From a virus (taxonomy: Duplodnaviria; Heunggongvirae; Uroviricota; Caudoviricetes), in the IMG/VR virus record IMGVR_UViG_3300020045_006153, positions 51,550 to 115,549 of that record: 64,000 nucleotides of DNA; one strand, 5' to 3'. The translations under genes and the position numbers were made by a program. Under the pieces are notes generated by a model that saw only the letters and a list, made by a program, of their open reading frames with translations, was not told the origin of the DNA and made no database searches. This document shows, one piece after another, positions 16,686 through 62,861 of this stretch. The number at the start of each line of letters is the position of its first letter. Within the stretch, counting starts at the first letter, position 1.

Positions 16686-16704
16686 TCTAACTTAGCATAA
16701 GTTA

Positions 16705-16728
16705 AGGACCTTCGGGTCCTTTCTTTTT
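16705..16728. terminator. intrinsic terminator (AGGACC-ttcg-GGTCCT + TTCTTTTT)
   Basis: Stem-loop plus T-tract after the OMP-like gene. Confidence 0.7.
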
Positions 16729-16799
16729 GACTACAAATGGTAAAATCAGTCGTTGACTAAACTGGTAATATCATATATAGTTAAACAAAGGAAAACAAT

Positions 16800-30513: not shown

Positions 30514-30762
30514 ATGTACAGATTTAAAACTCGCGAAGAAGCCCTTGTTGCTGCTAATGCAGAAGGTGAGGAACTAATGAAGAACGACAATTATGTCGAG
30601 TTTGAAGGTATGAATTGTAACGATTATCTAGATGATTTTTCCATAGAATGCGAGGGTTGGGACGGTGCTAGCCGTAGGTGTGACTGCGGACATCGTCGTG
30701 TTAGTTGGGAACTATTGGGTAGTGATGCATCTGGCTGGGATTATTTTGCTTGTGCATATTAG
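30514..30762 (+). CDS. hypothetical Cys-containing protein
   Basis: 82-aa ORF. Confidence 0.4.
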   Translation: MYRFKTREEALVAANAEGEELMKNDNYVEFEGMNCNDYLDDFSIECEGWDGASRRCDCGHRRVSWELLGSDASGWDYFACAY

Positions 30763-32575: not shown

Positions 32576-33577
32576 ATGAAATATGCAACTGGATTAGTAG
32601 TGGGTAAATTTTGTCCTCTGCACAAGGGACACGAATTGCTAATCAGCACTGCACTAAGCCAGTGCAATCGTGTTGTTATTCTTTCTTACACTTCACAAGA
32701 ATTTGAAGGTTACGAAGTTGAAAAAAGAGAACAATGGATTAAACTCATGTACCCTAAAGCAATTGTAAAGGTATTATCTCCACATGAAGTACCAGATGAT
32801 GATGCGCCTGCAGAATTTCATCGACTATTTTGTGCCGATCATCTCCTTAATGTAATGAATACTACTGTACAGGCAGTGTTCACTTCAGAAGATTACGGAG
32901 ACGGCTTTGCAGAATATCTCAGCAAATACTTTTCAGAAAATCTTAGCACAGAAATCACAGTAGATCACGTGCTTGTAGATAAAGAAAGGATACAGTTTCC
33001 AGTGTCGGGTACTTATATTAGAGAATCAATTGCAAATGGCAATATTCCTGTTACATTACATCCGTATGTGTTTAGGGATTTTGTTAAACGTGTTGCGTTT
33101 TTGGGCGGAGAATCATCGGGCAAAACAACGCTAACAACAGCATTAGGTCGCCGAACAAACATACAATGGGTATTAGAATACGGCCGTGAATTGTACGACG
33201 ATCGTACTGGCAAGTTAAATTACGAAGACATGGAGTTTATAGCCAAGACGCAGATAGGCAGAGAAAATCGGAGCAGGCAAGAACAATATATGTTTTGTGA
33301 TACTACTCCATTGACTACAAAATTCTATAGTGAGCAACTGTTTAACCGTGTCTCTCCCGCACTAGAAAAAATGTCGCAACGCGAGTACTACAAAATTTAT
33401 TTGTGTTCTCCGGACATTAATTTTGAGCAGGACGGCACAAGGCGTGATTCTACATTTAGAACGGTAGGACACAATTGGTATGTTAAGTACTTGACAGCAC
33501 ACAATATACCGTATACAATAGTACAAGGTTCTCTAGAAGAACGCATTGATTTTGTTATGAAAGATTTAGGATTATGA
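32576..33577 (+). CDS. nadR: NadR-like bifunctional NMN adenylyltransferase / ribosylnicotinamide kinase (no HTH domain)
   Basis: N-terminal VVGKFCPLHKGHE nucleotidyltransferase motif and central Walker A GGESSGKTT of the RNK domain, 333 aa. Confidence 0.7.
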   Translation: MKYATGLVVGKFCPLHKGHELLISTALSQCNRVVILSYTSQEFEGYEVEKREQWIKLMYPKAIVKVLSPHEVPDDDAPAEFHRLFCADHLLNVMNTTVQAVFTSEDYGDGFAEYLSKYFSENLSTEITVDHVLVDKERIQFPVSGTYIRESIANGNIPVTLHPYVFRDFVKRVAFLGGESSGKTTLTTALGRRTNIQWVLEYGRELYDDRTGKLNYEDMEFIAKTQIGRENRSRQEQYMFCDTTPLTTKFYSEQLFNRVSPALEKMSQREYYKIYLCSPDINFEQDGTRRDSTFRTVGHNWYVKYLTAHNIPYTIVQGSLEERIDFVMKDLGL

Positions 33578-35815: not shown

Positions 35816-37276
35816 ATGTCAAAACTTAATAGCATTATAACCGATACCGATTCTTACAAGGTATCAATGTGGAAACAATACCCAGCAGGAACAGAATATG
35901 TCTATTCTTACATCGAATCCCGTGGTGGCAAATATGATCGAACAGAATTTCTCGGGGTACAGGCTCTCGCAAAGTATCTTGCGACACCGATTACGCAAGA
36001 ACAAATTGATTATGCAGAGAAAATTTGGACTCTGCACGGAGAGCCGTTCAACCGCGAAGGTTGGCAATACATCCTTGATCAACATGAAGGCAAGTTACCT
36101 TTGCGGATTCGCGCAGCCAAGGAAGGCCTTATCATTCCGACTAAAAACGTCCTCTGCACAATCGAAAATACTGATCCAAACTGCTTCTGGCTCACAACTT
36201 GGGTGGAAACAGCGGCGCTACGTGCAATCTGGTATCCTACCACTGTCGGAACTACTTCGTGGCATATTAAGCAAGAAATTCTAAACTACCTGGAGAAGTC
36301 TGGTGACCCTACTACTATTGCTTTCAAGCTTCACGACTTTGGCGCTCGCGGTGTTTCTTCTGGAGAAAGCGCAGGGATCGGTGGTGCAGCGCACCTGGTT
36401 AACTTCATGGGCACCGACACTATTTCTGGTGTCCTCTATGCCATGGATGTATATGGTGGTGACGTTTGTGGATACAGTATCCCAGCCGCAGAACACAGCA
36501 CCATCACAAGTTGGGGTCGTGCACACGAAGTAGACGCTTACCGCAATATGGTCAAGCAGTTCGGCAAGCCTGGCGCTATCCTTGCTGTGGTTAGCGACTC
36601 ATACGATATTTACAAAGCCTGTGAAATGTGGGGAACGGAACTAAAAAATGATGTTATCAATTCTGGCGCAACTGTTGTTATCCGCCCTGACTCTGGCGAC
36701 CCTGTGGTGGTTGTGCCTAAAATGCTCAGAATCCTTTCTGAAAAGTTTGGGTATACCACCAACGCAAAAGGATATAAGGTACTTAATAACGTTCGCGTCA
36801 TTTGGGGCGACGGTATTAACAGTGTTAGCTTATCCAGTATTCTTCGCTGTGTAGTTGATGTAGCAGGATACTCTACAGACAATATTGCATTTGGTATGGG
36901 CGGCGGATTGTTGCAACAATGTGACCGTGATACACTGCAATTTGCTATGAAGTGTTCTTCGATTGGTATTCGTGAAGTTCCTGCAACATACGATCCAACT
37001 GCACAAGAAGAAAACACTGACGGTTCTGTGCTTGTATGGCGTGATGTATTCAAAGACCCTAGTACCGACCCCGGCAAGGCTTCTAAGAAGGGTCGTGTGA
37101 CATTGTGGACAAACGGTGCGCCACAAGGTACTGAATACGAAACCGCAGTCGACTGTCCTACACGCTGGACTGACAAAGGATTTGCTTGGAATGATGCAAT
37201 GGAAACGTATTTTGAAGACGGTGAAGTAAAGTTCACACAACCCTTTGAAGAAGTACGGACTAACAGCAATCTATGA
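35816..37276 (+). CDS. nadV: nicotinamide phosphoribosyltransferase (Nampt/NadV)
   Basis: 486 aa, characteristic type-II PRTase length and motifs (GTDTISG-like region, FGMGGGLLQ). Confidence 0.85.
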   Translation: MSKLNSIITDTDSYKVSMWKQYPAGTEYVYSYIESRGGKYDRTEFLGVQALAKYLATPITQEQIDYAEKIWTLHGEPFNREGWQYILDQHEGKLPLRIRAAKEGLIIPTKNVLCTIENTDPNCFWLTTWVETAALRAIWYPTTVGTTSWHIKQEILNYLEKSGDPTTIAFKLHDFGARGVSSGESAGIGGAAHLVNFMGTDTISGVLYAMDVYGGDVCGYSIPAAEHSTITSWGRAHEVDAYRNMVKQFGKPGAILAVVSDSYDIYKACEMWGTELKNDVINSGATVVIRPDSGDPVVVVPKMLRILSEKFGYTTNAKGYKVLNNVRVIWGDGINSVSLSSILRCVVDVAGYSTDNIAFGMGGGLLQQCDRDTLQFAMKCSSIGIREVPATYDPTAQEENTDGSVLVWRDVFKDPSTDPGKASKKGRVTLWTNGAPQGTEYETAVDCPTRWTDKGFAWNDAMETYFEDGEVKFTQPFEEVRTNSNL

Positions 37277-40841: not shown

Positions 40842-41207
40842 ATGTCTATATTAGTAACATTATCCTTGGCTACCATTTGTTTTTCTTATCAAGGTGCTGA
40901 AGAGTGCTATCCAGTAATAGTAGGCCGCAATAATAGTACACCAGTCGGTGAATATGTGTTGCAGCGCAAACGCACAAAGGCACCTGGATACGGCGGCGAT
41001 GTATTGCAATTTAAAGAAACCGAAACCATAGTTTATGCAATACATCGCGTTTGGCTAATGAAACCGGAACAACAACGTATGCAACGACTTCGAAGTGAAG
41101 TGATTACAGATCGTTTCGTGAGTGAAGGGTGTATTAATGTTGAACCCGAAGTATATACTAAGTTACTTAATTGTTGTTCTCGAGAAAAACTAACAGTAAA
41201 ACAATAG
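40842..41207 (+). CDS. L,D-transpeptidase (YkuD)-like small secreted protein
   Basis: N-terminal hydrophobic segment. AIHRVW ... SEGCINV matches the His ... S-x-G-C-(I/V)-(R/N) catalytic motif. 121 aa; stop is TAG. Confidence 0.4.
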   Translation: MSILVTLSLATICFSYQGAEECYPVIVGRNNSTPVGEYVLQRKRTKAPGYGGDVLQFKETETIVYAIHRVWLMKPEQQRMQRLRSEVITDRFVSEGCINVEPEVYTKLLNCCSREKLTVKQ

Positions 41208-41318: not shown

Positions 41319-43517
41319 ATGATTATTAATAGCACTCCTACAAATGAAGCAGTTCTGTCTAACGTCGGGCAAATTGGTGAATTTAAAATCCGAAATTCTG
41401 CTAAAGCATTTAGCATTCTGAGTTCGGGATTGTACGCTAACAAAATCCGCGCTATTATTCGAGAACTATCTTGCAATGCAGTAGATAGTCACGTTGCAGC
41501 AGGCAAAGTAGATACGCCATTCGGTGTACATTTGCCCAATGCATTAGATCCGTGGTTTTCAATTCGTGATTTCGGAACAGGTCTTAACAACGATCAGATT
41601 ATCAATATCTACACTACCTATTTCGAATCTACTAAAACTGGCTCCAACGATTTTATCGGCGCCTTGGGTCTAGGTTCTAAGTCCCCATTCTCGTACACAG
41701 ATAACTTCACAGTTACTGCGGTTAAGGATGGCACTAAACGAATTTATACTGCATTCATTAATGAAATGGGTGTGCCATCTATTGCACTAATGACTGAAAG
41801 TGATACTGATGAACAAAACGGTGTCGAAGTTAAGTTCGCAGTTAACGATCGATATGACTTTCCTAAGTTTCAACAAGAGGCCGCTGACGTATATACGCAT
41901 TTTAAACTGCGTCCTGTGATTGCAGGTGCCCACGGTTTCCGATTTATCGATCGTGAATACAGCGATGTAAACATTGTTCCCGGTGTTAGTTCCTATAAGA
42001 ACACAGGATATTACAATATGTCTAGCGTTGCATTGATGGGCAACATTGCGTATCCTATCAATGTACCTAATGCAGAGCAAAACTTGGGAGACTTAGCAGG
42101 GCTATTGAACTGCGGTCTTGAAATTCAATTTAATATCGGCGACCTCGATTTTCAAGCATCGAGAGAAGGCCTTAGTTATATTCCACAAACAATTGCTGCT
42201 ATCAAGAAAAAACTTGAAGAGTTGAATGCACAACTATCGATTCGTCTTGCAGCAGATGCCGATGCAATTCAAAACAAATGGGATCGTGCACTATTCTTGC
42301 TTTCGAAGAAAGATGTTCAATTGTGGAGTGCGTCAGTATCTAAGTATCTCACAGATACACAATTTTCGCTAGTTACACGGGATAATTACGGCATTCGTGC
42401 TAAGGTTTTTAAACTAAGTGCTAACATGCTTGCTAACGATTTTAATATTGCAATGAACGGATTCGATAAGAATCGTGGTTATAATAGTACAGTCCATATT
42501 ATTCGGGCAGGACCAGTGCATGAAAAACGTGCAGACGGCACCGGATATGATATTGTCGATAATGAATGGACGATTACTGTTAGTAAAGATCAATACTTTA
42601 TTGAAAATGATTTAAAAATCGGTGCGATTGAACGTGCAAAATATAACTGGCGCACCGCTCGTAATTCACAGAATAGTTACACAGATTATGTATATATATT
42701 GTCTAAGGCTGATAAGGCCAAGGACATGGACGTTGCAGGATTTTTGAAACTGTTGGAAATGCCGCCAGAAAATCAAGCAATGCTTGCATCGTCATTGACA
42801 GAAAAGCCAAAGATAGCAAAAGCCTCGGGCAAAAATGTTACGATATTGCGTCTTGAGGAAAAGACCACAGGATGGGGTCGTAAAACCGGTGATAGTGTTT
42901 GGAAGGACGCAGGCAAGGCAAGTACGTTTGATAGTAGTGTTACATACTATTATTTGCCGCTAAGTGGTTACTCATTTACTCCATCTATTGCAACTGGCAT
43001 TGACTCTCCCGGCGCATTTTATCATACGTTATCGTTCAGTTCTATTCCTAGTTTGCATAACATTAAAGTTTATGGGGTGCGTAAAACTGACATTGAATTT
43101 ATTAAGACTCAAAAGAATTGGATAAATCTCGAAGAACATGTAGTTTCTGTTCTCAATAAACTCGATGACACATTTATTGTTAGTGTGGCAAGACACGAGG
43201 TTGACAAGTATAGTTTTATCAAGTATAATAATGTTGTAAGTCAAGTAGATAAGAACAGCCCATTTAGTACCCTTGTAAAAAAATTCAGTGGTATTAAAAA
43301 AAGCGACACTTCACTTGCTTCTTTGAAGAATCTTACCACACGTTACGCAATTGATGTAGGTGTTAAGGCAGAGAAGGTTATTAAGGAATTTGCGAATGAA
43401 TGTGGGGCCGTTCGCAATCGGTATCCGTTGCTAGATTGCCTCCGTGATTACAATGTACCTGACAGTGCATTGGCAGAGTATATTAATTTAATTGACGCAA
43501 AGAAAGAAGGAATTTAA
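41319..43517 (+). CDS. GHKL (Bergerat-fold) ATPase-like protein
   Basis: N-box ELSCNAVDSH, G1 box IRDFGTGL, G2 box GALGLGSKS in the N-terminal 130 aa; 732 aa. Confidence 0.4.
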   Translation: MIINSTPTNEAVLSNVGQIGEFKIRNSAKAFSILSSGLYANKIRAIIRELSCNAVDSHVAAGKVDTPFGVHLPNALDPWFSIRDFGTGLNNDQIINIYTTYFESTKTGSNDFIGALGLGSKSPFSYTDNFTVTAVKDGTKRIYTAFINEMGVPSIALMTESDTDEQNGVEVKFAVNDRYDFPKFQQEAADVYTHFKLRPVIAGAHGFRFIDREYSDVNIVPGVSSYKNTGYYNMSSVALMGNIAYPINVPNAEQNLGDLAGLLNCGLEIQFNIGDLDFQASREGLSYIPQTIAAIKKKLEELNAQLSIRLAADADAIQNKWDRALFLLSKKDVQLWSASVSKYLTDTQFSLVTRDNYGIRAKVFKLSANMLANDFNIAMNGFDKNRGYNSTVHIIRAGPVHEKRADGTGYDIVDNEWTITVSKDQYFIENDLKIGAIERAKYNWRTARNSQNSYTDYVYILSKADKAKDMDVAGFLKLLEMPPENQAMLASSLTEKPKIAKASGKNVTILRLEEKTTGWGRKTGDSVWKDAGKASTFDSSVTYYYLPLSGYSFTPSIATGIDSPGAFYHTLSFSSIPSLHNIKVYGVRKTDIEFIKTQKNWINLEEHVVSVLNKLDDTFIVSVARHEVDKYSFIKYNNVVSQVDKNSPFSTLVKKFSGIKKSDTSLASLKNLTTRYAIDVGVKAEKVIKEFANECGAVRNRYPLLDCLRDYNVPDSALAEYINLIDAKKEGI

Positions 43518-43519
43518 AA

Positions 43520-44596
43520 ATGACAAGTTACCCATATATTATTCAAGGTTCAAATATTGTTGTTGTTATCAACAATCAAACCCATACAGTATCTAAGTCT
43601 CATATGACTTATAACACTGTACTCGAAGCAATTAAAGCAGGAGATTGGGATAAAGTAAAAGAATCAATCGAACCCAAGAAAGCAATTATTGCGTACGGTA
43701 AGGGCAACCTCTCTGTACAAGACGGAGAAGTGTACTGGAAGGGAGAAGTGTTTTCTAGTTATCAAACCGGAAAGATGGTTGAAATGCTAGAAAGCGGGTT
43801 CTCTATTGAACCACTTGCAAACTTTACTGAGAATGTGATGAAGAATCCATCTCGTCGTGCAGTGTATGAACTGTATCCTTTTCTAGAAAAAGGCGGAATG
43901 CCTATTACACCTGATGGTCACTTCCTTGCTTACAAGAAAGTCAACGATAACTATTTCGATGTTCACTCTCGTACTGTGCTTAATAAGCCATACGGTTTGA
44001 TGGTTGATAACGATCTCAAATGGATTGCAGAAGGAAGTGCTGGCAAGAAGAAAGAAGTTACTGTTTCTATCGAAAATGGCGTTACTGTTGTTAGCATGGA
44101 ACGTAATGAAGTAAATGATGACAAGGATCAAACTTGTTCTGAAGGCCTGCACTTTTGCTCTAAAGAGTATCTACGTAGTTTCGGTGGAGACCGTACTGTG
44201 ATCCTTAAGATCAATCCAGCAGATGTTGTGAGCATTCCAAGTGACTATAACAATAGTAAAGGACGCACTTGCCGATACGAAGTTATCGGTGAGTTGAATG
44301 AGGAAACTGTACTTTCCCCAGAAAAGGCATTTACTGCGCCTGTGCAAGATAATGCATACGGTATTAAGGAATCGATTAACAAATTGACTCCGTGGCCTTT
44401 TGCAAAGGCAACAGTTGCTCCTGTAGTTACTCGTCAATCTGCCGCTAGCAATGCTGCACAAGAATACGACAAGAAAGGCAATCCACTGTCTATGACAAAA
44501 GATGCAATTCGTAAGCGTAAGGCGCGGGCTGCTAAGAATAGTGTGACGCCTACACCATTTTATGCAAATGCGTGGCCTACGCCTAAAGGCTTTTAA
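43520..44596 (+). CDS. hypothetical protein (partner of the GHKL-like gene)
   Basis: 358 aa, 3-nt gap from the upstream gene. Confidence 0.45.
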   Translation: MTSYPYIIQGSNIVVVINNQTHTVSKSHMTYNTVLEAIKAGDWDKVKESIEPKKAIIAYGKGNLSVQDGEVYWKGEVFSSYQTGKMVEMLESGFSIEPLANFTENVMKNPSRRAVYELYPFLEKGGMPITPDGHFLAYKKVNDNYFDVHSRTVLNKPYGLMVDNDLKWIAEGSAGKKKEVTVSIENGVTVVSMERNEVNDDKDQTCSEGLHFCSKEYLRSFGGDRTVILKINPADVVSIPSDYNNSKGRTCRYEVIGELNEETVLSPEKAFTAPVQDNAYGIKESINKLTPWPFAKATVAPVVTRQSAASNAAQEYDKKGNPLSMTKDAIRKRKARAAKNSVTPTPFYANAWPTPKGF

Positions 44597-44637: not shown

Positions 44638-44672
44638 TTGACAGTCCTGTTCATTGTTGCTATAATATATGC
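44638..44672 (+). promoter_or_regulatory. sigma70 consensus promoter TTGACA-17-TATAAT
   Basis: Upstream of 44755. Confidence 0.45.
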
Positions 44673-44754: not shown

Positions 44755-45684
44755 ATGAAAAAACTTTTAATTGCTTCGCTCGTAGCACTTTCAATAACCG
44801 CAATTGCTGCTCCTGCAGACGGAGCACCAGTAGCAGATTGTGAAGGTGTTAAAGTTGCAACTGGTCCAAAAGGTAAAGGATTTTCTTTGCTGTATACTGA
44901 CATTGCTAAATTGTGCAGTGCTAAAGTAAATATGTGCGAGATTAATACATCAGGCGGACTAGATAATTTGAATTCGTTGTCTACCAAAGAAGCCGATATC
45001 GGATTTGTGTCTCTTGATACGATTAATGATATGAAAAACGGTGACGAAAATATTGCTGCTCTGCAATCTGTTATGCCAGTGAATAATAATTATTTACATA
45101 TAGTTACTTCTACAAGCGGGTATTCTGTACAAGGCGAAAAGAAGTTCGGCATTATTAAAGGTGATGTTACACAAGTGGTTATTAACAGATTTTCAGAACT
45201 ACGTGGAAAGTCAGTTGCGCTTGTAGGTTCTGCACAATTGTTGGGCCGACGCCTAGATAAACAATTCGGTTATGGTATGACATTTGTTGATGTAAAAGAT
45301 GATAACGCTGCTTTTGAACTTGTAAAGAAAGGGCAGGTTGCTGCCGCATTTACAGTTAGTGGTTGGCCAAGTGGTACTGTTAAGGCGCTTACGCAAGCAA
45401 GCGGGTTGACAATGGTTCCGTTTGATGCACCTGTTAGCGACCCTTATAAAGTTAAGGCGCTAAACTATAAGAACATTGCAGTGTATAACAACAATAGTCT
45501 TGCTGTGCAGAACTTGCTTGTTACTCGTCAATTCAGTGGACAACGTGCAACAAATGTTGCAGCAATTCAAAATTGCATTGCCCAGAATTTGACTGAACTC
45601 AAGGAAGGCAGTTATCAACCTGCATGGAATGAAGTTAACTTGTCTACTAATACTGGTGTAACACCTTTTAAGGCTAAGAAGTAA
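44755..45684 (+). CDS. periplasmic substrate-binding protein (TAXI-TRAP / PhnD-like fold) with signal peptide
   Basis: MKKLLIASLVALSITAIAAPA signal. VATGPKGKGFSLLYTDIAKL resembles the TAXI Gly-rich N-terminal motif. 309 aa. Confidence 0.45.
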   Translation: MKKLLIASLVALSITAIAAPADGAPVADCEGVKVATGPKGKGFSLLYTDIAKLCSAKVNMCEINTSGGLDNLNSLSTKEADIGFVSLDTINDMKNGDENIAALQSVMPVNNNYLHIVTSTSGYSVQGEKKFGIIKGDVTQVVINRFSELRGKSVALVGSAQLLGRRLDKQFGYGMTFVDVKDDNAAFELVKKGQVAAAFTVSGWPSGTVKALTQASGLTMVPFDAPVSDPYKVKALNYKNIAVYNNNSLAVQNLLVTRQFSGQRATNVAAIQNCIAQNLTELKEGSYQPAWNEVNLSTNTGVTPFKAKK

Positions 45685-46336: not shown

Positions 46337-46531
46337 ATGAGCGGGCCTGGCGTTATTATAAATGAACCTCCACAAGTTTGTGAATTGTGTGGAGTAGTTG
46401 ATGAATGTCGCCCTTACGGACCCGACGGAGAGCAGATTTGTTTTGACTGCGGGCAAAAAGATATTGAAACTACAAAAAAGCGAATGTTAAAATATATTTT
46501 TGGGGTTGATGAAAATGGTAACGCAGACTGA
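46337..46531 (+). CDS. small zinc-finger protein (CxxC...CxxC)
   Basis: In-frame ATG 46337 of track ORF 46280..46531. Confidence 0.35.
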   Translation: MSGPGVIINEPPQVCELCGVVDECRPYGPDGEQICFDCGQKDIETTKKRMLKYIFGVDENGNAD

Positions 46532-46760
46532 TTATTTTAATCGTATTGGGTATAAACCAAAATACTTTCTAGGTGATCGTGTATTTGGCCATTACAAAAA
46601 AATTCCGTTCATTGGTACTGTGGGCAACGATACTATTATCTCTGAAATAGAAGGCCCACGGATTTCTATACATTTAGATCTCCCAATGAAGATTGACAAT
46701 GCATATAGAAATGTTATAATAGTTAAACACAAGGATATTAAAAAACTTGTAGAATTTTAA
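46500..46760 (+). CDS. hypothetical protein
   Basis: 86-aa ORF. Confidence 0.4.
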   Translation: MGLMKMVTQTDYFNRIGYKPKYFLGDRVFGHYKKIPFIGTVGNDTIISEIEGPRISIHLDLPMKIDNAYRNVIIVKHKDIKKLVEF

Positions 46761-46761
46761 T

Positions 46762-46838
46762 GCGCTGGTAGCCTAGATGGTAAGGGCAGTTGCCTCTAAA
46801 ACAACAAGTAGTGGGTTCGAATCCCATCCAGCGCGCCA
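46762..46838 (+). tRNA. tRNA with anticodon CUA (amber/UAG suppressor; Gln/Trp-type scaffold, G73 discriminator, encoded CCA)
   Basis: Cloverleaf: acceptor GCGCTGG/CCAGCGC, D-stem GCCT/GGGC, anticodon stem GTTGC/ACAAC (one C-A mismatch), loop CT-CTA-AA with U33, 5-nt variable loop, T-arm GTGGG-TTCGAAT-CCCAT. Confidence 0.75.
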
Positions 46839-46849: not shown

Positions 46850-47110
46850 ATGACACCCGAGTATATTGAATTTAAAGAGCAAGTTAAAAAGCAGCGGGCA
46901 GTGATTGCCCGCAAAGAAGCACTTGTAGACAAGCAACGAGCGATTCTCAAAAAATTAATCGTTAAATGCACACATGAAGAAGTAGTACAAAAAGATTCAT
47001 ATTTCTCGGGTAGTTACGATAATAAAGCATCTACTGATTATTGGATGCAATGTACACTATGCGGAGAGCGCGGTCCTATTAAAACAGTAACGCACAGTTA
47101 CTACGGATAA
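46850..47110 (+). CDS. hypothetical protein with C-terminal CxxC
   Basis: 86-aa ORF. Confidence 0.4.
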   Translation: MTPEYIEFKEQVKKQRAVIARKEALVDKQRAILKKLIVKCTHEEVVQKDSYFSGSYDNKASTDYWMQCTLCGERGPIKTVTHSYYG

Positions 47111-47111: not shown

Positions 47112-47315
47112 ATGAGTCAATTTTTTCAATTTAAATACCACAATGATCCTAAGCGGCTATACCGAGATTCGTTTCATCAGAGTATAATGAAATTCGCAGC
47201 AACGCCTGGCAATATATATGATTCCAATGATCGAGGTCAACCAGGGCGGTTTAATAAATGGAACAAACTACCAGTTAAAGCCTGGTTGTTGTATTGGCGT
47301 TTCCATAAGAAATAA
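47112..47315 (+). CDS. hypothetical protein
   Basis: 67-aa ORF. Confidence 0.35.
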   Translation: MSQFFQFKYHNDPKRLYRDSFHQSIMKFAATPGNIYDSNDRGQPGRFNKWNKLPVKAWLLYWRFHKK

Positions 47316-47400: not shown

Positions 47401-48333
47401 ATGATGTATAATAATAAACTCGTCGCGAGTATAAAAGCCAACGGTAAAATTCTTCGTGAATTTAAAGACACAGTCTATATCCCCTTCGGGCAAGAATATA
47501 GTTTCCTGTTAAAAAATCTCAATACAAAACGTGCAATTGTAAACATCTTTATCGATGGTGATAATGTTGTCCCTGGCGGACTTGTTATCGATGTAGGCCG
47601 TGAGATTAATCTCGAACGTGCAATTCGTAACGGCAATCTCACAGAAGGCAATAAATTTAAATTTATTGAGCGTACTTCACTAATCGAAGATGGACCACGA
47701 GGTATTAAACTCGAAGACGGATTAATCCGTATTGAGTATCAATTTGAACTATATGCGCCGCAGGTATTTAATATTCACCAAAAATGGGTTCCTGGACACT
47801 ACGAATATGACAAATATCAATTTAACAATGTATGGCGCGGCCTTGATCAACAAGTATACGGTAATCTCGGCAATTCGACTATAGGTGGTGCTTCTGGATC
47901 TATCGATCAAGGTCTAGTAGACACGGGCGGACAACTTCGTCGAGTTGATATGTCAAAGAACGGATCAGCAATGGCGCAAGCAGCATCTACGAATGTTTCA
48001 AATTATTGCGCAGACAATGGCATTAAGAATAGTGTAGAGTTTCACGACGGTAGTGCTACAATGGATTGGTCAGATTCTATGCCAAAGAATGATGTTGGCA
48101 TTACTGTTCCTGGAAGTAAAAGTAGCCAAATGTTTCAAACAATTACAGTCGGTACACTTGAAACAGAAAAGCATACTATCATCTTTAAATTGCTAGGCGA
48201 GACCGGCGATAATAAGCCAGTACTAGATCCAGTCACTGTTACATCAAAAACTAAGTGTACTACTTGCGGAATCCAAAGCAAACGTAACGCTAAGTTCTGT
48301 GCACATTGCGGAACTGCATTGGAAATATTATAA
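47401..48333 (+). CDS. hypothetical protein with C-terminal zinc ribbon
   Basis: 310 aa, CTTCG...CAHCG. Confidence 0.45.
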   Translation: MMYNNKLVASIKANGKILREFKDTVYIPFGQEYSFLLKNLNTKRAIVNIFIDGDNVVPGGLVIDVGREINLERAIRNGNLTEGNKFKFIERTSLIEDGPRGIKLEDGLIRIEYQFELYAPQVFNIHQKWVPGHYEYDKYQFNNVWRGLDQQVYGNLGNSTIGGASGSIDQGLVDTGGQLRRVDMSKNGSAMAQAASTNVSNYCADNGIKNSVEFHDGSATMDWSDSMPKNDVGITVPGSKSSQMFQTITVGTLETEKHTIIFKLLGETGDNKPVLDPVTVTSKTKCTTCGIQSKRNAKFCAHCGTALEIL

Positions 48334-51658: not shown

Positions 51659-53056
51659 ATGAATAGTTTCGTAACCGCAGTTAACACTGTACCGACCATG
51701 ACACGCACCGAAAACGGTATGCGTACTCTGGAATCCAGCAAGAGCAATCTTGTTGACTTGTTCTTTGCTATTGGCGCAAGCCGTGGTAAGGACTTGAGCA
51801 CCGAGTTTGCTCGTGCACTTGCACAAGACTCTACCCTTGCTTTGCGTATGCTTGCATGGGCACGTGACGTGCGTGGTGGTGCAGGTGAACGTGAAGTTGT
51901 GCGCAAGATTCTGTTGAATCTTGAAAAGACCAACCCAGAAGCGTTGGATCGTATTTTGCCACACCTGGCAGAATTTGGTCGTTGGGATGACCTGTTGATC
52001 TTCAACACAAAGCCAGTTAAGGCTAAGGCCTTTACTATGATCGGTGATGCACTTCGTGTGCGTAACGGTCTGGCTGCAAAGTGGATGCCTCGTCAAGGAC
52101 CGCTTGCTGCAGAACTGCGTACTTTCTTTGGAATGTCGCCTAAGTTCTACCGTAAGTCGCTTGTTGAAATGAGCAAGACTGTTGAGCAAAACATGTGTGC
52201 TAACGATTGGACAAACATTGAGTACTCGCATGTGCCATCCGTGGCTGCATCGCGTTACCAAAAGGCGTTCAAGAAGCACGATGCAGTTGGTTACGATGCG
52301 TACAAGGCTAAGTTGGTTACCGGCGAAGCAAAGGTAAATGCTGCGGCAGTTTACCCATACGATGTTATCAAAGCACATAAGTTCGGTGGAGATAACATTG
52401 TTATTCAAGCCCAATGGGATGCACTGCCGAACTACATCGGTGATGAACTTGTTCTGCCAATGTGTGACGTTTCGGGTTCCATGGGTACCCCAGCTGGACA
52501 AAACGGAAACGTAACTTGTCTTGATGTGTGTTTGAGCCTTGGCTTGTACTTGGCTGATAAGAACACTGGACCGTTCAAGGACATGTTCCTTACGTTCTCT
52601 GCAAAGAGCAAGATCGAAGTATTGAAGGGAAACCTGCTTGCTAAATTGGCTCAATTGCAACGTGCACAATGGGATATGAACACTAACCTTAACTCGGCAT
52701 TTGAAGAAGTGCTGCGTGTTGCTAAGGCTGGAAATGTTAGTGCAAATGATATGCCTAAGTATGTGTTGATCATGTCGGATATGCAGTTTGATCGTTGTGC
52801 AAACTACGATGACTCTGCGATGCGTATGATCGAACGTAAGTATGCAGATGCTGGATACGTTGTCCCTAACATCGTATTCTGGAACTTGAATTCCCGTGCA
52901 GGACAATCTCCTGTGGAGTTCAACAAGAAGGGTGCTGCATTGGTCTCCGGATTCAGCCCAGCAATCCTAAAGAGCATTTTGGCTGCTGAGGATCTTGATC
53001 CTACCAGCGTAATGCTGCAAACTTTGAACAGCGACCGTTACTCTGTAATTGTCTAA
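51659..53056 (+). CDS. vWA-domain protein with N-terminal TROVE-like (Ro60/DUF2828-like) region
   Basis: MIDAS motif PMCDVSGSMG. N-terminal LVDLFFAIGASRG...ALRMLAWARD resembles the Ro60 TROVE helical repeats. 465 aa. Confidence 0.55.
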   Translation: MNSFVTAVNTVPTMTRTENGMRTLESSKSNLVDLFFAIGASRGKDLSTEFARALAQDSTLALRMLAWARDVRGGAGEREVVRKILLNLEKTNPEALDRILPHLAEFGRWDDLLIFNTKPVKAKAFTMIGDALRVRNGLAAKWMPRQGPLAAELRTFFGMSPKFYRKSLVEMSKTVEQNMCANDWTNIEYSHVPSVAASRYQKAFKKHDAVGYDAYKAKLVTGEAKVNAAAVYPYDVIKAHKFGGDNIVIQAQWDALPNYIGDELVLPMCDVSGSMGTPAGQNGNVTCLDVCLSLGLYLADKNTGPFKDMFLTFSAKSKIEVLKGNLLAKLAQLQRAQWDMNTNLNSAFEEVLRVAKAGNVSANDMPKYVLIMSDMQFDRCANYDDSAMRMIERKYADAGYVVPNIVFWNLNSRAGQSPVEFNKKGAALVSGFSPAILKSILAAEDLDPTSVMLQTLNSDRYSVIV

Positions 53057-53523: not shown

Positions 53524-53990
53524 AATACACATTTACAACAGTTGCTAGCGTCGGCTTACATCGGGCGCCTATGATAACAGGACCTCGGGTCACTGGGACA
53601 GCAAATCTCCTCGGTTGAAAGGAGTACTTGGTCACTACCCTGCGGGATGATGATCGGATACGCCTTCGTACAACCGATTTGACCATTTGAAAAATTAAAA
53701 CTCAAAAGGCTAAAGAAGGGAGAAAAACCCTACGCTACATTGCTTGCTAGCATTAGCAATGTAGCCGCCGTCGTATAAAGACGCAACTCGAGGTACCGGA
53801 CGACCGCCTCTGTAATTGTTGTAATGCTGTGACTGTAAAGAACTCGGATAATGTTTTCTTGATTTTATTTTTGCCCTTTCTGGGCAAAGAGTGACCATTG
53901 AATCTGGATAATATCTCTCTAATCTAATATGTGTTGAACCGCAGGTGAAAACACATACGAGCAACGCTCGTATTATACGATAGTCTTAAA
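53524..53990 (+). ncRNA. candidate large structured non-coding RNA (unclassified)
   Basis: About 470-nt ORF-poor GC-enriched region with multiple perfect hairpins (GCTACATTGC-12nt-GCAATGTAGC; TTGCCC-tttct-GGGCAA; ACGAGC-aac-GCTCGT; ATCGG...CCGAT). Confidence 0.3.
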
Positions 53991-58406: not shown

Positions 58407-58709
58407 ATGGCAAATACAGATATCGCACAACGTGAAACAACTAAGATTAAACTCAAAGAGCCTAGCAAGTATAAAGTACTTGTGATAAACGACGATTATA
58501 CTCCTGTAGATTTTGTTATTGTTATGCTTATGGAAATTTTTAAACATACTGACGAATCTGCGGTTGCATTAACAAAGCAAGTGCACGAACAAGGACGTGC
58601 AATTGTAGGTACATATACTTATGAAATTGCAGAACAGAAATGCATTGAATCTACTAACTTAGCACGTGAACATGGTTATCCATTAGTGATTAAAGTAGAA
58701 GCGGTATAA
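58407..58709 (+). CDS. clpS: ATP-dependent Clp protease adaptor ClpS
   Basis: YKVLVINDDYTPVDFVIVMLMEIF matches the ClpS core (VxLxNDDYTPMxFVxxVL), 100 aa. Confidence 0.8.
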   Translation: MANTDIAQRETTKIKLKEPSKYKVLVINDDYTPVDFVIVMLMEIFKHTDESAVALTKQVHEQGRAIVGTYTYEIAEQKCIESTNLAREHGYPLVIKVEAV

Positions 58710-59452
58710 TTATATTTTTTGAATCCTTCTTCTAATCCATTAAAAGGTAAGTTGAAGGATTCAAGTATAGTACTATCACCAATTAAATCATCTCCTGTTC
58801 TAGGAGATTCGATAACTGTCTTAACTTCATTAAGAACACAAAATCTCATTGCTTGTTCTAGCAATGTAAACTTTTCTTTATACACGATATCAAAATTGTG
58901 TTCTTCTATTGTTTCGTTGATTACTAAATCAACAATAGGAAAAATATCCTCAAGATTAAAATAATCAAATTTCCTATTTTCTCCAATTACAAATCGGTCA
59001 CTCGCATATAAATGCTTAAAGAAACGAGAGTTGTTTTCACTGTGATGATAATTTCCAAATATTCTTAAATTATAAAAATTCTCAGTCATTAAGCAACTAT
59101 ATTTGATTAATTTCTTAGCCATACCATATTGGGAATTAAACGCATCGTATGCACTGCCAAAATGAATTAATTTTTTAAATAAATGCCGTTGATCTCGAAT
59201 GTTATTCCACATTTGCATTGCTACTGTGCGATACATTGGATCCGCAGATCCTAAGTTTTCTCTTCCTACTAATGCAGTATGTATAACAATATCAACTGTA
59301 TGAGTATTAAAGAAATGCTCAACTGCTATTTTATCTAAACAATCTAAATCTATTTTGTTAGGTGCATATACTGTATGTTGTGCAGACAAATAGGCGGTAA
59401 GATGTTTGGCAATAAATCCATTACCGCCTGTGATTAAAATATTCATAAGCAA
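58676..59452 (-). CDS. NAD(P)-dependent sugar epimerase/reductase (SDR family)
   Basis: N-terminal ILITGGNGFIAKHL Rossmann motif, 258 aa. Confidence 0.6.
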   Translation of the reverse strand: MLMNILITGGNGFIAKHLTAYLSAQHTVYAPNKIDLDCLDKIAVEHFFNTHTVDIVIHTALVGRENLGSADPMYRTVAMQMWNNIRDQRHLFKKLIHFGSAYDAFNSQYGMAKKLIKYSCLMTENFYNLRIFGNYHHSENNSRFFKHLYASDRFVIGENRKFDYFNLEDIFPIVDLVINETIEEHNFDIVYKEKFTLLEQAMRFCVLNEVKTVIESPRTGDDLIGDSTILESFNLPFNGLEEGFKKYNYTASTLITNG

Positions 59453-59973
59453 GGGTGTCCTTGATCTTTTTTACTAATAATAGGCTGAGGTGAAGATACA
59501 GGCCAATTAATTTCAAGTTTCGGGTCATTCCAAAAGATACCTTCATCTAATTCAGGAGAATGATAGTGTGTTACCTTGTAATTAACTGCTGTATTAGGTT
59601 CTAATGTTAAGTACCCGTGATAACATCCTGGCGGAACTAATAACATAACTGGTTGATATTCAGCTATCGTTAATGTTACACATTGTTTGTAAGTTGGACT
59701 ATTTACGCGTCCGTCGACTACTACGTCAAATATGCTACCATTAAGTACTGATACTAACTTATACTGAGGTACTGATAATCTGTGCAAGCCCCGTATTGTA
59801 TCTGTCATGTCATTCCACGATACCATATCTTGTACAAACCGATCATGTATTCCTAAATCAGGAGCCCATTCGTCGCGCCAACTTTCATTTATCCATCCTC
59901 GTTGGTCTGTATACCGTGTAAGTGAAAATAATTTAACACCAGAAATATCAAATTCCTGTATATCTTTTACCAT
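59443..59973 (-). CDS. RmlC-like cupin sugar-nucleotide 3,5-epimerase
   Basis: 176 aa, cupin fold signature around YHGY; adjacent to dehydratase genes. Confidence 0.55.
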   Translation of the reverse strand: MVKDIQEFDISGVKLFSLTRYTDQRGWINESWRDEWAPDLGIHDRFVQDMVSWNDMTDTIRGLHRLSVPQYKLVSVLNGSIFDVVVDGRVNSPTYKQCVTLTIAEYQPVMLLVPPGCYHGYLTLEPNTAVNYKVTHYHSPELDEGIFWNDPKLEINWPVSSPQPIISKKDQGHPCL

Positions 59974-60914
59974 ATAAAGTTTTTAGAATAGTAACGGACA
60001 ATACTTTTTAATTCAGTATCAAATAGCGCTTCGGGCCTCCATCCTAATCCTTGCAGTTTGTTGTCATTAATTGCATAACGTACATCTTGTCCTTGACGCA
60101 TAACGCTTAGGTCTAAATATTTCTGAGGATTGCCAGGTAGTTTCATTAATTTAATAATTTTCTCAGCAACAATAATATTTTTCTCTTCGTAGTTCCCTGC
60201 AATATTAAAAATCTCATTCTTAACATCCATGTCGATAATTGTAAGTACAGCATTTGCGGTATCACTTGCATGTAACCAAGTTCGGCGCGGAAGACCGCAA
60301 TCGTGTAGTGGTGCTAATTTACCTAACGCAAGATGTTTAATTGTGTGCGGAATAAACTTTTCAGTATATTGTCCAATGCCGTAATTATTTGTAGGACGTA
60401 CAATAATGTAAGGTACTCCATAAGTGCGCGACCAAGCAGTAATTAGCATGTCTGCTGCTGCTTTAGTTGCACTGTATGGATTGGAAGGCTTTAGCAAATC
60501 TGTTTCAGAATGCGAACCAGTTACAATATCTCCGTACACTTCGTCTGTGCTAAAATGCAATAACGTAGGCATTTTAAATTTGTATTTTTGTTTGATTAGT
60601 TTAAGCAAATTGTGCACACCATCAATATTACTTTTTACAAATACATCAGACGATGCAATTGAATTGTCTACGTGAGTTTCTGCTGCTGTATTAATAATGT
60701 AATCACACTCGTAAAGGGTACTCATATCGTTAATATCAATTTGCTCAAATGAAAAGTTATCGTACCTTTCGAGTTCGGGCAACAACTTCACATTAGCAGC
60801 ATATGTAATTTTATCAATACCTCTAACATACCATCCTCGTTCTAAACATGCTTTAGTAACATGATATCCAATAAATCCTAAACATCCTGTTACATATACT
60901 ATCTTCTTACTCAT
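59967..60914 (-). CDS. NDP-hexose 4,6-dehydratase-like extended SDR
   Basis: VYVTGCLGFIGYHV Rossmann motif, catalytic YSATKAAADML (YxxxK), 315 aa. Confidence 0.6.
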   Translation of the reverse strand: MSKKIVYVTGCLGFIGYHVTKACLERGWYVRGIDKITYAANVKLLPELERYDNFSFEQIDINDMSTLYECDYIINTAAETHVDNSIASSDVFVKSNIDGVHNLLKLIKQKYKFKMPTLLHFSTDEVYGDIVTGSHSETDLLKPSNPYSATKAAADMLITAWSRTYGVPYIIVRPTNNYGIGQYTEKFIPHTIKHLALGKLAPLHDCGLPRRTWLHASDTANAVLTIIDMDVKNEIFNIAGNYEEKNIIVAEKIIKLMKLPGNPQKYLDLSVMRQGQDVRYAINDNKLQGLGWRPEALFDTELKSIVRYYSKNFIW

Positions 60915-61708
60915 TTATAATTCCTAATACTTTGCTCTAAGCCTGCTAATTTTATATTTTCGATTGTTAATCGGTTAGCAGCACCGGTATAATTTGTTCT
61001 CGAAACATCTACTATGTTTACTTGTGCAGTTAAACGATGAATATCAATAAACTTATTCAACACCTCGCTCAATCTTAATTTTTCTGCATAGACACAATTA
61101 AGGTCTTTGTATAATAACTTGCTATTTAAGCAGTATATAACTACTCTACAAAAATCCTCTGCACTAAAGAAATCAAAATCTTTGTCAATTACATCAATTG
61201 ACTCGTTGCGCATTAATTTTGCAAACAATCTATCTGCGTGTTCTGATTTATCAAAACATCCAAATAGTCGTAGTGTAACAAACTTAGGATTGTCCATGCA
61301 TAATCGAGCAATTACATTTTTAACATATCCGTAATTATCAGAAGGGACTTGATCTGCAATTGAATTTTCACATCTACAGTCTATATCAGTTTCTCTGTCA
61401 AATTCCGCACCTGATCCAATGTTAATGTACTTTGTAAACAATCCTTTTAAATTATAGAAGTTTAAAAATATGCCAAGTATGTTTTTAACATCATTGCTGT
61501 CTAGATTATCTATCTTTGATTTCTCGCCTGGCATTGCACAATTAATAACTGCGTATGGATTCTCTTTAATAAGCAAATTCATAACAGAAAAATAATCATT
61601 AAGATCTACATCGTCTCTTGTAATAGGAACAATGTTAACTCCGTGTATATTGTTTACTAGATATTTGCCAATGAATCCATTAGCACCTAAAATTAAAACT
61701 TTTTTCAT
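60911..61708 (-). CDS. NAD-dependent epimerase/reductase (SDR family)
   Basis: VLILGANGFIGKYL, 265 aa. Confidence 0.55.
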   Translation of the reverse strand: MKKVLILGANGFIGKYLVNNIHGVNIVPITRDDVDLNDYFSVMNLLIKENPYAVINCAMPGEKSKIDNLDSNDVKNILGIFLNFYNLKGLFTKYINIGSGAEFDRETDIDCRCENSIADQVPSDNYGYVKNVIARLCMDNPKFVTLRLFGCFDKSEHADRLFAKLMRNESIDVIDKDFDFFSAEDFCRVVIYCLNSKLLYKDLNCVYAEKLRLSEVLNKFIDIHRLTAQVNIVDVSRTNYTGAANRLTIENIKLAGLEQSIRNYK

Positions 61709-62238
61709 TTTCCATAGTCCGGGAATTCAACTAGAATAGAACTCGTATGATGATTATATGCTTCTTGATATTGTCTAAAAATTTGTCTATGATCCGTAAG
61801 TTCAACTATATTAATTGTTTTGCACATTAAACGAAATGCTTCTGAAAAATTACCTTTATGTTGATCTTGTGGATCAATTGGATTTTCAGATCCAACGGCA
61901 ACTCGAATAATAACTTTTGGATTACAATGTCTGTTAAACATTATTAATTTATCAAGATGGTTAACAATTTGGTCTGTTGCACTCAAGAGAAAATTCCAAC
62001 GAGGCACTACGCTAATTGGAACAAATCCATTTAATGCTAATCCTGTGCTAACGCCTATTTGAAAGTTTTCTGCAACAGGAAATTCTATCTTCTTATCTGC
62101 AGGAACTTCTACCAAACTCTCATAACACCCTGTTCCTGCATAGGAAACAGATTGCCCAAGAAATATAGTATCTCCTTGTTCAGCAAGCCAATTCATTGAA
62201 CGCTTTAGTTCATCATTGTATTCTTTGTTTAGTGACAT
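61705..62238 (-). CDS. transketolase-like TPP enzyme, C-terminal (pyrimidine-binding) subunit
   Basis: 177 aa, adjacent to the N-terminal subunit gene. Confidence 0.45.
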   Translation of the reverse strand: MSLNKEYNDELKRSMNWLAEQGDTIFLGQSVSYAGTGCYESLVEVPADKKIEFPVAENFQIGVSTGLALNGFVPISVVPRWNFLLSATDQIVNHLDKLIMFNRHCNPKVIIRVAVGSENPIDPQDQHKGNFSEAFRLMCKTINIVELTDHRQIFRQYQEAYNHHTSSILVEFPDYGK

Positions 62239-62861
62239 TAAAATTGCACCCTCTTTCCCGCGCCAGCGTGTGGATACTTTAGATTTTTGTACTTGTAGTA
62301 AATGAGATTAGTACCTTCGTACCATTGTCTGTTTTGATGGGGCAAGTACCATTTATCAGATCCCCATACTTCTTTAGTAGGAGTCATTACACTAAGTTCG
62401 TTATCCTCAACTACAAATGTAATAGGTAATTCTTGGGCTACTGCATACTTGTATGCTTCTGCCCAAGCACCTGTTTCTGCAGACATATCACCTGTCCAGC
62501 ACCATACATGTTCGCCTGTTCCTTTTAACTTTGCAGCAAGTGCTATACCAGTTGCAATACTAGGGATACCGCCGACTATGCTTGAACAAATAAATTTATA
62601 TTCTGGCAAGTTCATTACCATGCTTTTACCTTGCATGATCTTTTCCTTTAGTAGGTCTTTAGGAATTCCTTTTAATAAGGCCTGATAATGATTGCGCCAT
62701 GTACAGCAAACCCAATCTTTCCCAACATTTACTTTTTCAAATACGCGCATAATATTTTCTTCATTATTTGCATATAAGTGAATAGGGGCTTTAATTTGTG
62801 CGGTATTAAACAGATCCCCTATCTCTGTTTCGAAGTCAATTAGTTCTTGTGCAGTTATCAT
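62238..62861 (-). CDS. transketolase-like TPP enzyme, N-terminal (TPP-binding) subunit
   Basis: GDM...27 aa...DN thiamine-diphosphate binding motif, 207 aa. Confidence 0.45.
   Translation of the reverse strand: MITAQELIDFETEIGDLFNTAQIKAPIHLYANNEENIMRVFEKVNVGKDWVCCTWRNHYQALLKGIPKDLLKEKIMQGKSMVMNLPEYKFICSSIVGGIPSIATGIALAAKLKGTGEHVWCWTGDMSAETGAWAEAYKYAVAQELPITFVVEDNELSVMTPTKEVWGSDKWYLPHQNRQWYEGTNLIYYKYKNLKYPHAGAGKRVQF

Follow-up and report, generated by a model that had tools for sequence, protein, structure and literature searches.

A tRNA gene with anticodon CUA maintained in jumbo phages that read TAG as a stop codon

What use is a transfer RNA (tRNA) that reads UAG to a phage whose own genes end normally at TAG? 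The question is raised by a tRNA gene with anticodon CUA (46762..46838, + strand) in a tailed phage of the class Caudoviricetes, IMG/VR record IMGVR_UViG_3300020045_006153. The DNA analysed, positions 51,550 to 115,549 of that record, is a stretch of 64 kb, hereafter called the window, from a genome of about 353 kb. Suppressor tRNAs of phages are usually explained by recoding. Here, such a tRNA is kept in more than 100 jumbo-phage lineages that, in the sampled DNA, read TAG as stop, and this conservation without recoding argues for a second use of nonsense suppression during infection.

The preliminary description of this DNA had reported a phage tRNA with anticodon CUA, forming a 77-nt cloverleaf with encoded CCA and a U33-containing anticodon loop, in an intergenic gap, and had suggested ARAGORN as a check. 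ARAGORN returned exactly this 77-nt gene on the same strand, with the anticodon cta at gene position 35 (window positions 46796..46798). The Rfam tRNA model RF00005 matched 46762..46835 with 61.9 bits (gathering score 29, E = 5e-11), in agreement with the assignment. ARAGORN found two RNA genes in the window, this one and a transfer-messenger RNA (tmRNA), so that the gene is the sole tRNA within 64 kb; the label 'Pyl' which the program attaches to it is due to the anticodon alone. Parsed arm by arm, the acceptor strand and D arm read GCGCTGG TA GCCT-AGATGGTAA-GGGC A, and the 3' part reads GTTGC-CTCTAAA-ACAAC AAGTA GTGGG-TTCGAAT-CCCAT CCAGCGC G CCA. The acceptor stem is paired at 7/7 positions (GCGCTGG/CCAGCGC), with G1-C72 and discriminator G73. 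The D arm carries G18G19, the variable loop has 5 nt, the T arm (GTGGG-TTCGAAT-CCCAT) is canonical, and the anticodon loop C-U-C-U-A-A-A contains U33, A37 and A38. The gene begins 1 nt past the stop of the open reading frame (ORF) 46500..46760 and ends 11 nt ahead of the ATG of 46850..47110. The parse thus bears out the cloverleaf, the encoded CCA, the intergenic position and the U33 loop as first reported. An alternative register of the loop, which had been named as grounds for withdrawing the assignment, fails: shifted by one base the anticodon loop does not pair on direct reading, and covariation of the stem pairs 28:42, 29:41 and 30:40 determines where it lies. The anticodon 5'-CUA-3' therefore stands in canonical register, as in an amber suppressor. 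With its RF00005 cloverleaf, seven-nucleotide loop, U33 and purine 37, the tRNA resembles an elongator tRNA. It departs from one in a point that the preliminary description had not noticed. Pair 31:39, which closes the anticodon loop, is a C.A mismatch in place of a Watson-Crick or G.U pair.

Relatives of the gene were collected by two routes. By synteny, ARAGORN was run on 75 IMG/VR loci carrying a homologue of the 310-aa protein encoded downstream of the window tRNA (47401..48333), which gave 31 distinct CUA tRNAs; in most of these loci the CUA tRNA lies 0.3-2 kb upstream of the homologue. By sequence, a DNA pattern made from the conserved features of the family (loop, T arm, CGC-N-CCA 3' end) matched at least 119 further IMG/VR contigs. 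The combined set, drawn from the matches listed, comprises 118 distinct CUA tRNAs on related IMG/VR jumbo-phage contigs, whose loci are designated by L numbers below. In the 31 homologues found by synteny, 17 of the 21 stem pairs were altered on both sides, covariation extended to all four helices, 91.5% of the paired cells could pair, compared with at most 41% when the 3' partners were slid, and the covariation score was reached by no shuffle. The loop YUCUAAA was invariant in 115 of the 118 distinct copies. Stem covariation around a fixed loop indicates that purifying selection preserves a tRNA fold together with its CUA anticodon, and the window gene is thus a genuine, selectively maintained tRNA gene. 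Its closest relative among the matches listed, L009, is 83% identical and has A73; a search of IMG/VR for an exact copy found none.

The family is confined almost wholly to phage DNA, namely to XacN1-like jumbo myoviruses and their environmental relatives. Both 'tRNA-Sup' genes of the jumbo phage XacN1 have the anticodon and T arms in common with it. The window tRNA shows the loop, the open 31:39 position, the T arm and the CCA of this XacN1-type Sup(CUA) family and lies in an XacN1-related genome. When a stricter pattern containing CUCUAAA was run against 185,579 bacterial and archaeal genomes, it matched five times, always on short contigs of metagenome-assembled genomes (MAGs), one of which additionally holds a phage-type tmRNA. 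Such contigs are probably misbinned phage contigs. L086 (contig CAZCDW010000126.1, binned as Bifidobacterium) carries a phage-type CUA tRNA together with a permuted tmRNA, and L084, L085 and L088 are also short bacterial-MAG contigs with a CUA tRNA. Some related loci further encode tRNAs with Leu anticodons (CAA, UAA), namely L020 (18240..18317), L025 (16457..16533 and 16688..16765), L045 (4016..4093) and L075; these are 74-78 nt long and without the long variable arm that a bacterial tRNA-Leu should have.

The open 31:39 position proved to be a property of the family. A non-pair was present there in 79 of the 118 CUA tRNAs, as against 21 of the 475 tRNAs of other kinds that these loci encode (Fisher p = 2e-48); the mismatches in the family were C.A (49), A.C (22), C.C (7) and U.C (1). 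Position 8 was other than U in 47/118 CUA tRNAs, compared with 56/475 of the other tRNAs (p = 4e-11), and 27:43 was mismatched in a third of the family copies. The CUA tRNAs of the relatives sit apart from the main tRNA arrays of those phages.

The use of TAG was analysed over the window and over 4-20 kb pieces of its relatives, in which few late genes are recognisable and the late regions are mostly unsampled. A greedy gene call on the window gave 108 stops, of which 66 were TAA, 36 TGA and 6 TAG (about 5%). The frequency of TAG is therefore nearer to one in 20 than to the one in 10 estimated earlier, and two of the six TAG stops belong to doubtful antisense ORFs at a Polynucleobacter-1 RNA locus. 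The TAG stops previously noted in 1243..1671, 11763..11987 and 40842..41207 are all real by direct reading. Readthrough of the second of these, the glutaredoxin gene, would be harmless as had been supposed, a TAA following soon after its TAG-TAG; taken over the window, readthrough of TAG stops would add at most 11 residues. TAG accounted for 8.7% of all called stops and for 4.2% in conserved, dereplicated families, where it was the rarest stop. Coding density in the window was 0.903 under code 11 and rose to 0.907 when TAG was translated as sense. Over 168 loci the corresponding values were 0.846 and 0.864, and in the first 81 sequences the gain from TAG readthrough was no larger than that of the TGA and TAA controls.

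We then asked whether any gene continues behind a TAG. The final screen considered called genes only and demanded that a homologue from another locus align across the stop; a six-frame version was dropped because it was swamped by conserved non-coding frames. In 1.33 Mb, homology-supported readthrough was found for none of 175 TAG-terminated genes (controls: 11 for TAA and 2 for TGA, mostly artefacts). In 1.94 Mb of tRNA-carrying loci, 7 of 279 TAG-terminated genes passed the screen, and all seven were discarded on inspection. The candidates in L038, L162 and L205 and one in L170 are adjacent genes in the same frame, and for the L162/L170 gene pair two relatives have TAG, but L140 has TAA, as the stop ahead of the following ATG. 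The candidate in L140 and the other one in L170 are low-complexity antisense frames, while that in L128 ends at the edge of the fetched piece and has weak similarity alone past the TAG. On inspection of the candidates, 0 of 78 family matches crossed a stop. Families that retain both a TAG stop and a conserved extension behind it were not found; the one family that often ends in TAG (5/8 members) lacks such an extension as well, and continuation in the +1 or -1 frame was not enriched at TAG. The two virion-protein genes in the window (structural and tail-spike) are intact under the standard code. The sampled DNA thus shows neither the interrupted conserved genes nor the drop in code-11 density of a code-15 phage, and no in-frame TAG survived inspection. 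The sampled genome uses the standard code with TAG as stop, and the earlier statement that it is not TAG-recoded holds for this DNA. The authors of the XacN1 genome had likewise read through all 18 amber stops of the complete genome in silico, which revealed no additional similarity (PMC5852040).

The amino acid carried by the tRNA is a separate matter. The scaffold had been likened to Gln or Trp isoacceptors, a view that the family does not support. In the 31 copies found by synteny, and thus free of pattern bias, G1-C72, C2-G71 and G3-C70 are near-invariant; at position 73, A occurs 29 times, the two exceptions with G being the window copy and L078, and G73 is in the minority as well among the copies that end in CCA (14/117). 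The tRNA-Gln genes of the same phages have U1-A72/G73. With anticodons masked, isotype profiles derived from the 475 other tRNAs in these loci (81% cross-validated accuracy) placed not one of the 118 CUA tRNAs with Gln, Trp, Lys or Tyr. Mean scores were 26.7 bits for Arg, 26.6 for Gly and 24.8 for Met, as against 16.3 for Trp and 13.0 for Gln, the latter being near the lowest of the 20 isotypes. The window copy scored best with Asn (33.8), Arg (31.8) and Met (31.3). The identity set of E. coli glutaminyl-tRNA synthetase (GlnRS) comprises a weak 1:72 pair (U1-A72), G2-C71, G3-C70, G73, G10, U35, A37 and U38, and a G1-C72 pair is unfavourable for this enzyme. The window copy does fit G73, G3-C70, G10, U35 and A37, but it has G1-C72, C2-G71 and A38, and an origin from tRNA-Gln of the supE or code-15 kind was rejected. 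An origin from tRNA-Trp (su7) was rejected too, despite the G73 of the window copy, the Trp profile being best for 0/118. The window tRNA therefore did not arise recently, by a change of anticodon, from tRNA-Gln or tRNA-Trp, be it of a host or of a phage. Neither pairwise identity nor the profiles pointed to one consistent parent isotype, Arg and Gly being ahead by a few bits, so no parent can be named and the inserted amino acid is not predictable.

In six loci, namely L083 (36047..36205), L107, L135, L142, L164 and L178, two CUA tRNAs of differing sequence are separated by at most a few hundred bases. One copy, of the family type, has A73 (U73 in L142) and the other G73. In L107, L135 and L164 the G73 copy also has U1-A72 and hence a Gln-like acceptor end, though the profiles do not place it with Gln. 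To judge from these acceptor ends, some phages may carry two suppressors of differing amino-acid identity.

A promoter scan revealed a perfect sigma-70-type promoter upstream of the window tRNA, within the 3' end of ORF 46500..46760. Its -10 hexamer ends 41 nt before nucleotide 1 of the tRNA, for a predicted leader of about 34 nt. Among 115 distinct CUA-tRNA genes, 48% have a promoter with at least 10/12 matches in the 120 nt upstream of them; by the same criterion the share is 8% for the other tRNAs in these loci and 6% for random positions. In 30 of the 115 loci (L013 9842, L010 9835, L011 9131 and about 27 others), a strong promoter is placed such that 8-9 nt separate the end of its -10 hexamer from nucleotide 1; transcription would then begin on the mature 5' end or beside it. 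Such leaderless CUA tRNAs may bypass RNase P. No strong terminator was found on the + strand after the window tRNA, where a weak terminator-like site at 47270..47286 is the only one, and the tRNA may therefore head a transcript that includes two downstream genes.

The tmRNA of the window is a permuted, two-piece molecule that lies 32 kb from the tRNA. In the combined set, a tmRNA was present in the same fetched piece in 25 of the 118 distinct CUA-tRNA loci, and within 4 kb in 19 of them. Similar tmRNAs occur in related loci, some with much longer tags, such as AKTSTFKFMQVNVDVASNDSAFALAA. The window also encodes a ClpX-like unfoldase, and no ClpP was identified among the scanned window proteins. 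ClpX recognises ssrA-type tags ending in ALAA, and the tag predicted here has this ending. The tmRNA is a possible functional partner of tRNA(CUA), and ClpX may be associated with it functionally as well. Readthrough driven by suppressor tRNAs has been documented to give rise to tmRNA substrates (Ueda et al. 2002, cited by PMC3985003).

On balance, and with modest confidence, we favour the view that the window tRNA is an early-expressed, probably weak, general UAG-readthrough tRNA, with the host or an unsampled phage gene as its target. Host RNA polymerase would transcribe the gene from its own sigma-70 promoter at the start of infection, possibly together with the two downstream genes. After processing of the transcript back to the encoded CCA, a host aminoacyl-tRNA synthetase would charge the tRNA. 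By the identity rules of E. coli amber suppressors, U35 favours lysyl-tRNA synthetase in combination with A73 and GlnRS in combination with G73, though G1-C72 speaks against GlnRS. The charged tRNA would vie with release factor 1 for UAG codons, and the open 31:39 pair is expected to make it a modest and not an efficient suppressor. The proteome of the phage itself would be largely shielded, because the code is standard, TAG stops are rare and a further stop follows within 12 codons, and readthrough would therefore fall mainly on host messages ending in UAG or on unsampled phage genes. For ribosomes that arrive at the 3' end of a message, rescue would come from tmRNA; a tmRNA and a ClpX are supplied by the phage itself. 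A more ambitious form of this proposal joins tRNA(CUA), tmRNA and ClpX into one early-expressed takeover module, in which the suppressor, kept weak by the open 31:39 pair, takes ribosomes past host UAGs as far as the 3' ends of the messages, tmRNA tags the products and ClpX feeds them to proteolysis. We regard it as speculative and probably incorrect. If true, the module would break the host proteome down to amino acids and make ribosomes available, with the phage genes escaping because they are poor in TAG and have a further stop close behind each one.

Several points weigh against the readthrough tRNA that we favour. Expression, aminoacylation and readthrough are all deduced from sequence. 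No target gene was found in the sampled DNA, so that the host-directed part of the proposal is an argument by elimination. That DNA amounts to 64 kb of a genome of about 353 kb, together with relatives seen as pieces of 4-20 kb. For an efficient elongator it is unusual to have 31:39 mismatched and U8 so often lost, which could signal a different job. The linkage between tmRNA and tRNA is not strict, as the distance in the window illustrates, and their adjacency in the relatives could be due to shared ancestry and not to function.

Other explanations account for part of the same evidence. The phage might be partially recoded in the manner of code 15, with late genes beyond the window that contain in-frame TAG and whose expression is timed by an early suppressor, as proposed for crAss-like, Lak and other recoded phages. 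About 290 kb of the genome lie beyond the window, and early sigma-70 expression fits the model of Borges et al., in which suppressor tRNAs are produced early from standard-code genes (10.1101/2021.08.26.457843). The position of TAG as the rarest stop (4.2% in conserved families) would also fit, since TAG rarity has been described as a precursor state to recoding (10.1101/2021.08.26.457843). We nevertheless consider partial recoding unlikely, in view of the lack of in-frame TAG in the window and in the 1.94 Mb of tRNA-carrying loci, of the intact virion structural and tail-spike genes and of the 18 amber stops of the complete XacN1 genome, which gave nothing on readthrough. The window tRNA is moreover not Gln-like, and TAG-to-Gln is the sole reassignment reported for TAG-recoded phages (10.1101/2021.08.26.457843). 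The anticodon loop could instead be read in an expanded form. An open 31:39 position would create a nine-nucleotide loop, N-Y-U-C-U-A-A-A-N, able to read UAGA through the anticodon UCUA with a +1 frameshift. The non-pair is conserved, C.A swapping with A.C, the loop does contain UCUA, and engineered tRNAs with this anticodon read UAGA. Natural frameshift suppressors, however, have eight-nucleotide loops, and homology-supported +1 continuation after TAG was seen in 1 of 32 cases, in an unrelated phage, compared with 13/354 for TAA and 7/150 for TGA, which makes such decoding extremely improbable.

Nor need the molecule decode at all. It could be a tRNA-shaped RNA that serves as decoy or sponge, either of a tRNA-targeting defence nuclease of the host or of a synthetase, that is used in a non-ribosomal transfer of aminoacyl groups, or that forms a structured 5' processing element of the downstream operon. 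The family breaks the norms of elongators (31:39 mismatch, non-U8 in 40%, 27:43 mismatch in a third), the window gene is solitary, has its own promoter and lies away from main tRNA arrays directly 5' of conserved protein genes, and phage tRNAs with altered anticodon loops reportedly interact with tRNA-targeting defences. We judge such a role to be quite unlikely all the same, because the seven loop nucleotides, including U33 and A36-A37-A38, are fixed in 115/118 copies. A36-A37-A38 is typical of tRNAs that read codons starting with U, while G18G19, the T loop and the encoded CCA follow the canonical form, as expected for ribosomal decoding, and a plain processing element has no need of a fixed anticodon. 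The tRNA might also be an insurance or a near-neutral passenger, a weak suppressor that buffers amber mutations in a very large genome or simply persists at low cost. The failure to find a specific target agrees with this, as does the rarity of TAG stops, through which the cost to the phage would be low. On the other side, buffering one of three nonsense codons is a weak advantage, and the loop has been kept through more than 100 diverged lineages, with compensatory changes in the stems and a strong promoter of its own, which argues for direct selection and not drift. We therefore hold the insurance or passenger explanation to be distinctly improbable.

The features on which the analysis draws are collected in the table below.

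Table. Position and basis of features in the 64-kb window.
Feature	Coordinates	Strand	Basis and remarks
TAG-terminated gene, tandem stop TAG-TGA	1243..1671	+	Stop inspection
Glutaredoxin gene, ends TAG-TAG-TAT-GAC-TAA	11763..11987	+	Pfam PF00462, E = 3e-13
Permuted two-piece tmRNA, tag ANDSVYALAA, UAA stop	14326..14827	+	ARAGORN; Rfam RF04321, 106.9 bits, match 14356..14736
ClpX-like AAA+ unfoldase	21591..22832	+	Pfam zf-C4_ClpX, AAA_2, ClpB_D2-small
TAG-terminated 82-aa ORF, next stop TGA 12 codons on	30514..30762	+	Stop inspection
TAG-terminated YkuD-like (L,D-transpeptidase) gene, next in-frame stop TAG 9 codons on	40842..41207	+	Domain annotation, stop inspection
Perfect sigma-70-type promoter, TTGACA-16 nt-TATAAT with TG extension	46693..46720	+	Promoter scan, 12/12
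tRNA(CUA) gene	46762..46838	+	ARAGORN, Rfam RF00005, arm-by-arm parse, covariation in 31 homologues
86-aa ORF	46850..47110	+	ORF list; Cys pairs resembling zinc ribbon; begins 11 nt past tRNA CCA
310-aa protein, C-terminal zinc ribbon	47401..48333	+	Conserved downstream neighbour of CUA tRNA; XacN1 ORF366 homologue

The 86-aa ORF that follows the tRNA, and is probably co-transcribed with it, matched no Pfam or PHROG family. The 310-aa protein is 36% identical to XacN1 ORF366 and 30-36% identical to its counterparts in the jumbo phages XacN1, Xoo-sp13, CM1 and RAS14 of Xanthomonas and Stenotrophomonas. Full-length homologues with 43-61% identity occur on 75 IMG/VR contigs of up to 524 kb, 4126 homologues are present in the protein database, and an identical protein is recorded on a Joint Genome Institute (JGI) contig of 353,233 bp. 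Its family is the second commonest neighbour of the CUA tRNAs (38 of 118 distinct loci), after a protein of about 177 aa (51/118) that is missing from the window. Sequences in PDB gave no significant match to the 310-aa protein, and its AlphaFold model (mean predicted local distance difference test score, pLDDT, of 51) is unusable. The XacN1 homologue lies directly after the sheath gene, in a 'tail tube' position; this arrangement is not kept in the environmental clade, and the assignment was dropped. No synthetase, release factor or modification enzyme was present among the common neighbours of the 118 CUA-tRNA loci.

The tRNA gene lies 2.2 kb downstream of rIIA and rIIB (41319..44596). The window further contains genes for ribonucleotide reductase with glutaredoxin, nicotinamide adenine dinucleotide (NAD) salvage, ClpX, and virion structural and tail-spike proteins, and no close DNA relatives of it were found in INPHARED. 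A second perfect extended sigma-70 promoter (12/12) at 44638..44666 (+) lies upstream of an NMT1-like gene (44755..45684). Phage contigs that are not otherwise related to the window (L001-L005) carry copies of this gene with 64-82% identity, so that it may be a mobile auxiliary gene. Having this single gene in common with the window, L001-L005 were rejected as its relatives, and their lack of a tRNA(CUA) therefore carries no meaning. The NAD-salvage set consists of NAMPT and two proteins of the NMN (nicotinamide mononucleotide)-adenylyltransferase/NUDIX type (25354..26505, 32576..33577 and 35816..37276) and fits descriptions of jumbo phages. A block of sugar-nucleotide enzymes on the - strand (58676..63925), with a DegT-type aminotransferase and two epimerase/dehydratases, coincides with a flip of the GC skew across it. 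A full-length Polynucleobacter-1 RNA (RF01718, 96.7 bits) at 53543..53688 (+) may hint at the host lineage. It lies about 490 nt downstream of a gene for a DUF2828/DUF7788 protein (51659..53056, +), and the two might form a protein-RNA pair in the style of Ro60 and Y RNA.

How does the window tRNA compare with known systems? It joins a kind of gene already recorded in XacN1, which has two copies of tRNA-Sup(CUA) genes in each terminal repeat, and in the Ralstonia jumbo phage RsoM2USA, which also has a Sup(CUA); Atu_ph07 has a UCA equivalent. The authors of the XacN1 study found no target for their Sup tRNAs (PMC5852040), and those of the RsoM2USA study merely remarked that UAG is abundant (PMC8504454). 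XacN1 and the window both use the standard code, and the 265-300 kb region of XacN1 shares with the window both subunits (alpha and beta) of ribonucleotide reductase, a metallophosphoesterase, an L,D-transpeptidase and an ATPase. Between XacN1 and the family, the likeness extends to an anticodon arm of the AGAGC-CTCTAAA-ACTCC type, the C.A mismatch at 31:39 and the T arm. The XacN1 copies, however, stand in tandem among the tRNA genes of the terminal repeats and have acceptor stems GGCCCGT with A73 and GCTTTCG with G73, whereas the window copy is single and solitary, has its own promoter, and has a GCG...CGC stem with G73. The restriction to phages, the open 31:39 position, the private promoter and the tmRNA adjacency of the family were not found in the published descriptions consulted.

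The window resembles the code-15 phages (crAss-like, Lak, Jade/Sapphire) in having a CUA tRNA in a low-GC, TAG-avoiding genome and a standard-code, early-type context, and differs from them in the absence of in-frame TAG and of a drop in code-11 density, and in a scaffold that is not Gln-like. Ribozymes of the theta or HDV (hepatitis delta virus)-like kind adjoin suppressor tRNAs of gut phages (PMC10879173). An Rfam scan found neither a ribozyme of this kind nor any other Rfam RNA beside the window tRNA, which in this respect differs from those suppressors. With tRNA-Pyl it shares the CUA anticodon only. The former has a 6-bp anticodon stem and a 3-nt variable loop and lacks G18G19 and T-psi-C; the window tRNA has G18G19, a canonical T loop, a 5-nt variable loop and an anticodon stem of at most five positions. 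Its canonical fold led us to reject a tRNA-Pyl identity, and no pyl genes turned up among the annotated window proteins, which cover a subset of the ORFs. Annotation pipelines will call the gene 'tRNA-Pyl' or 'Sup', a label that should not prompt a switch to code 15.

With the classical suppressors supE, supF and supP of E. coli and psu1+ of T4, the window tRNA has in common the CUA anticodon accompanied by U33, A37 and A38, a loop context that favours the reading of UAG. These suppressors are single-base anticodon mutants of ordinary tRNAs, which keep the body of the parent, whereas the window tRNA belongs to an old, separate family without a clear parent isotype and is mismatched at 31:39. 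Studies of the anticodon arm and suppressor efficiency would predict a lower activity for such a mismatch. If the host-directed form of the readthrough proposal is true, these phages manipulate translation termination for takeover; if hidden TAG-containing genes exist, the clade shows recoding at a very early stage. The features found at the level of the family, namely its confinement to phages, the open 31:39 pair, the frequent early promoter and the frequent proximity to tmRNA, offer experimental handles in the cultivable phage XacN1.

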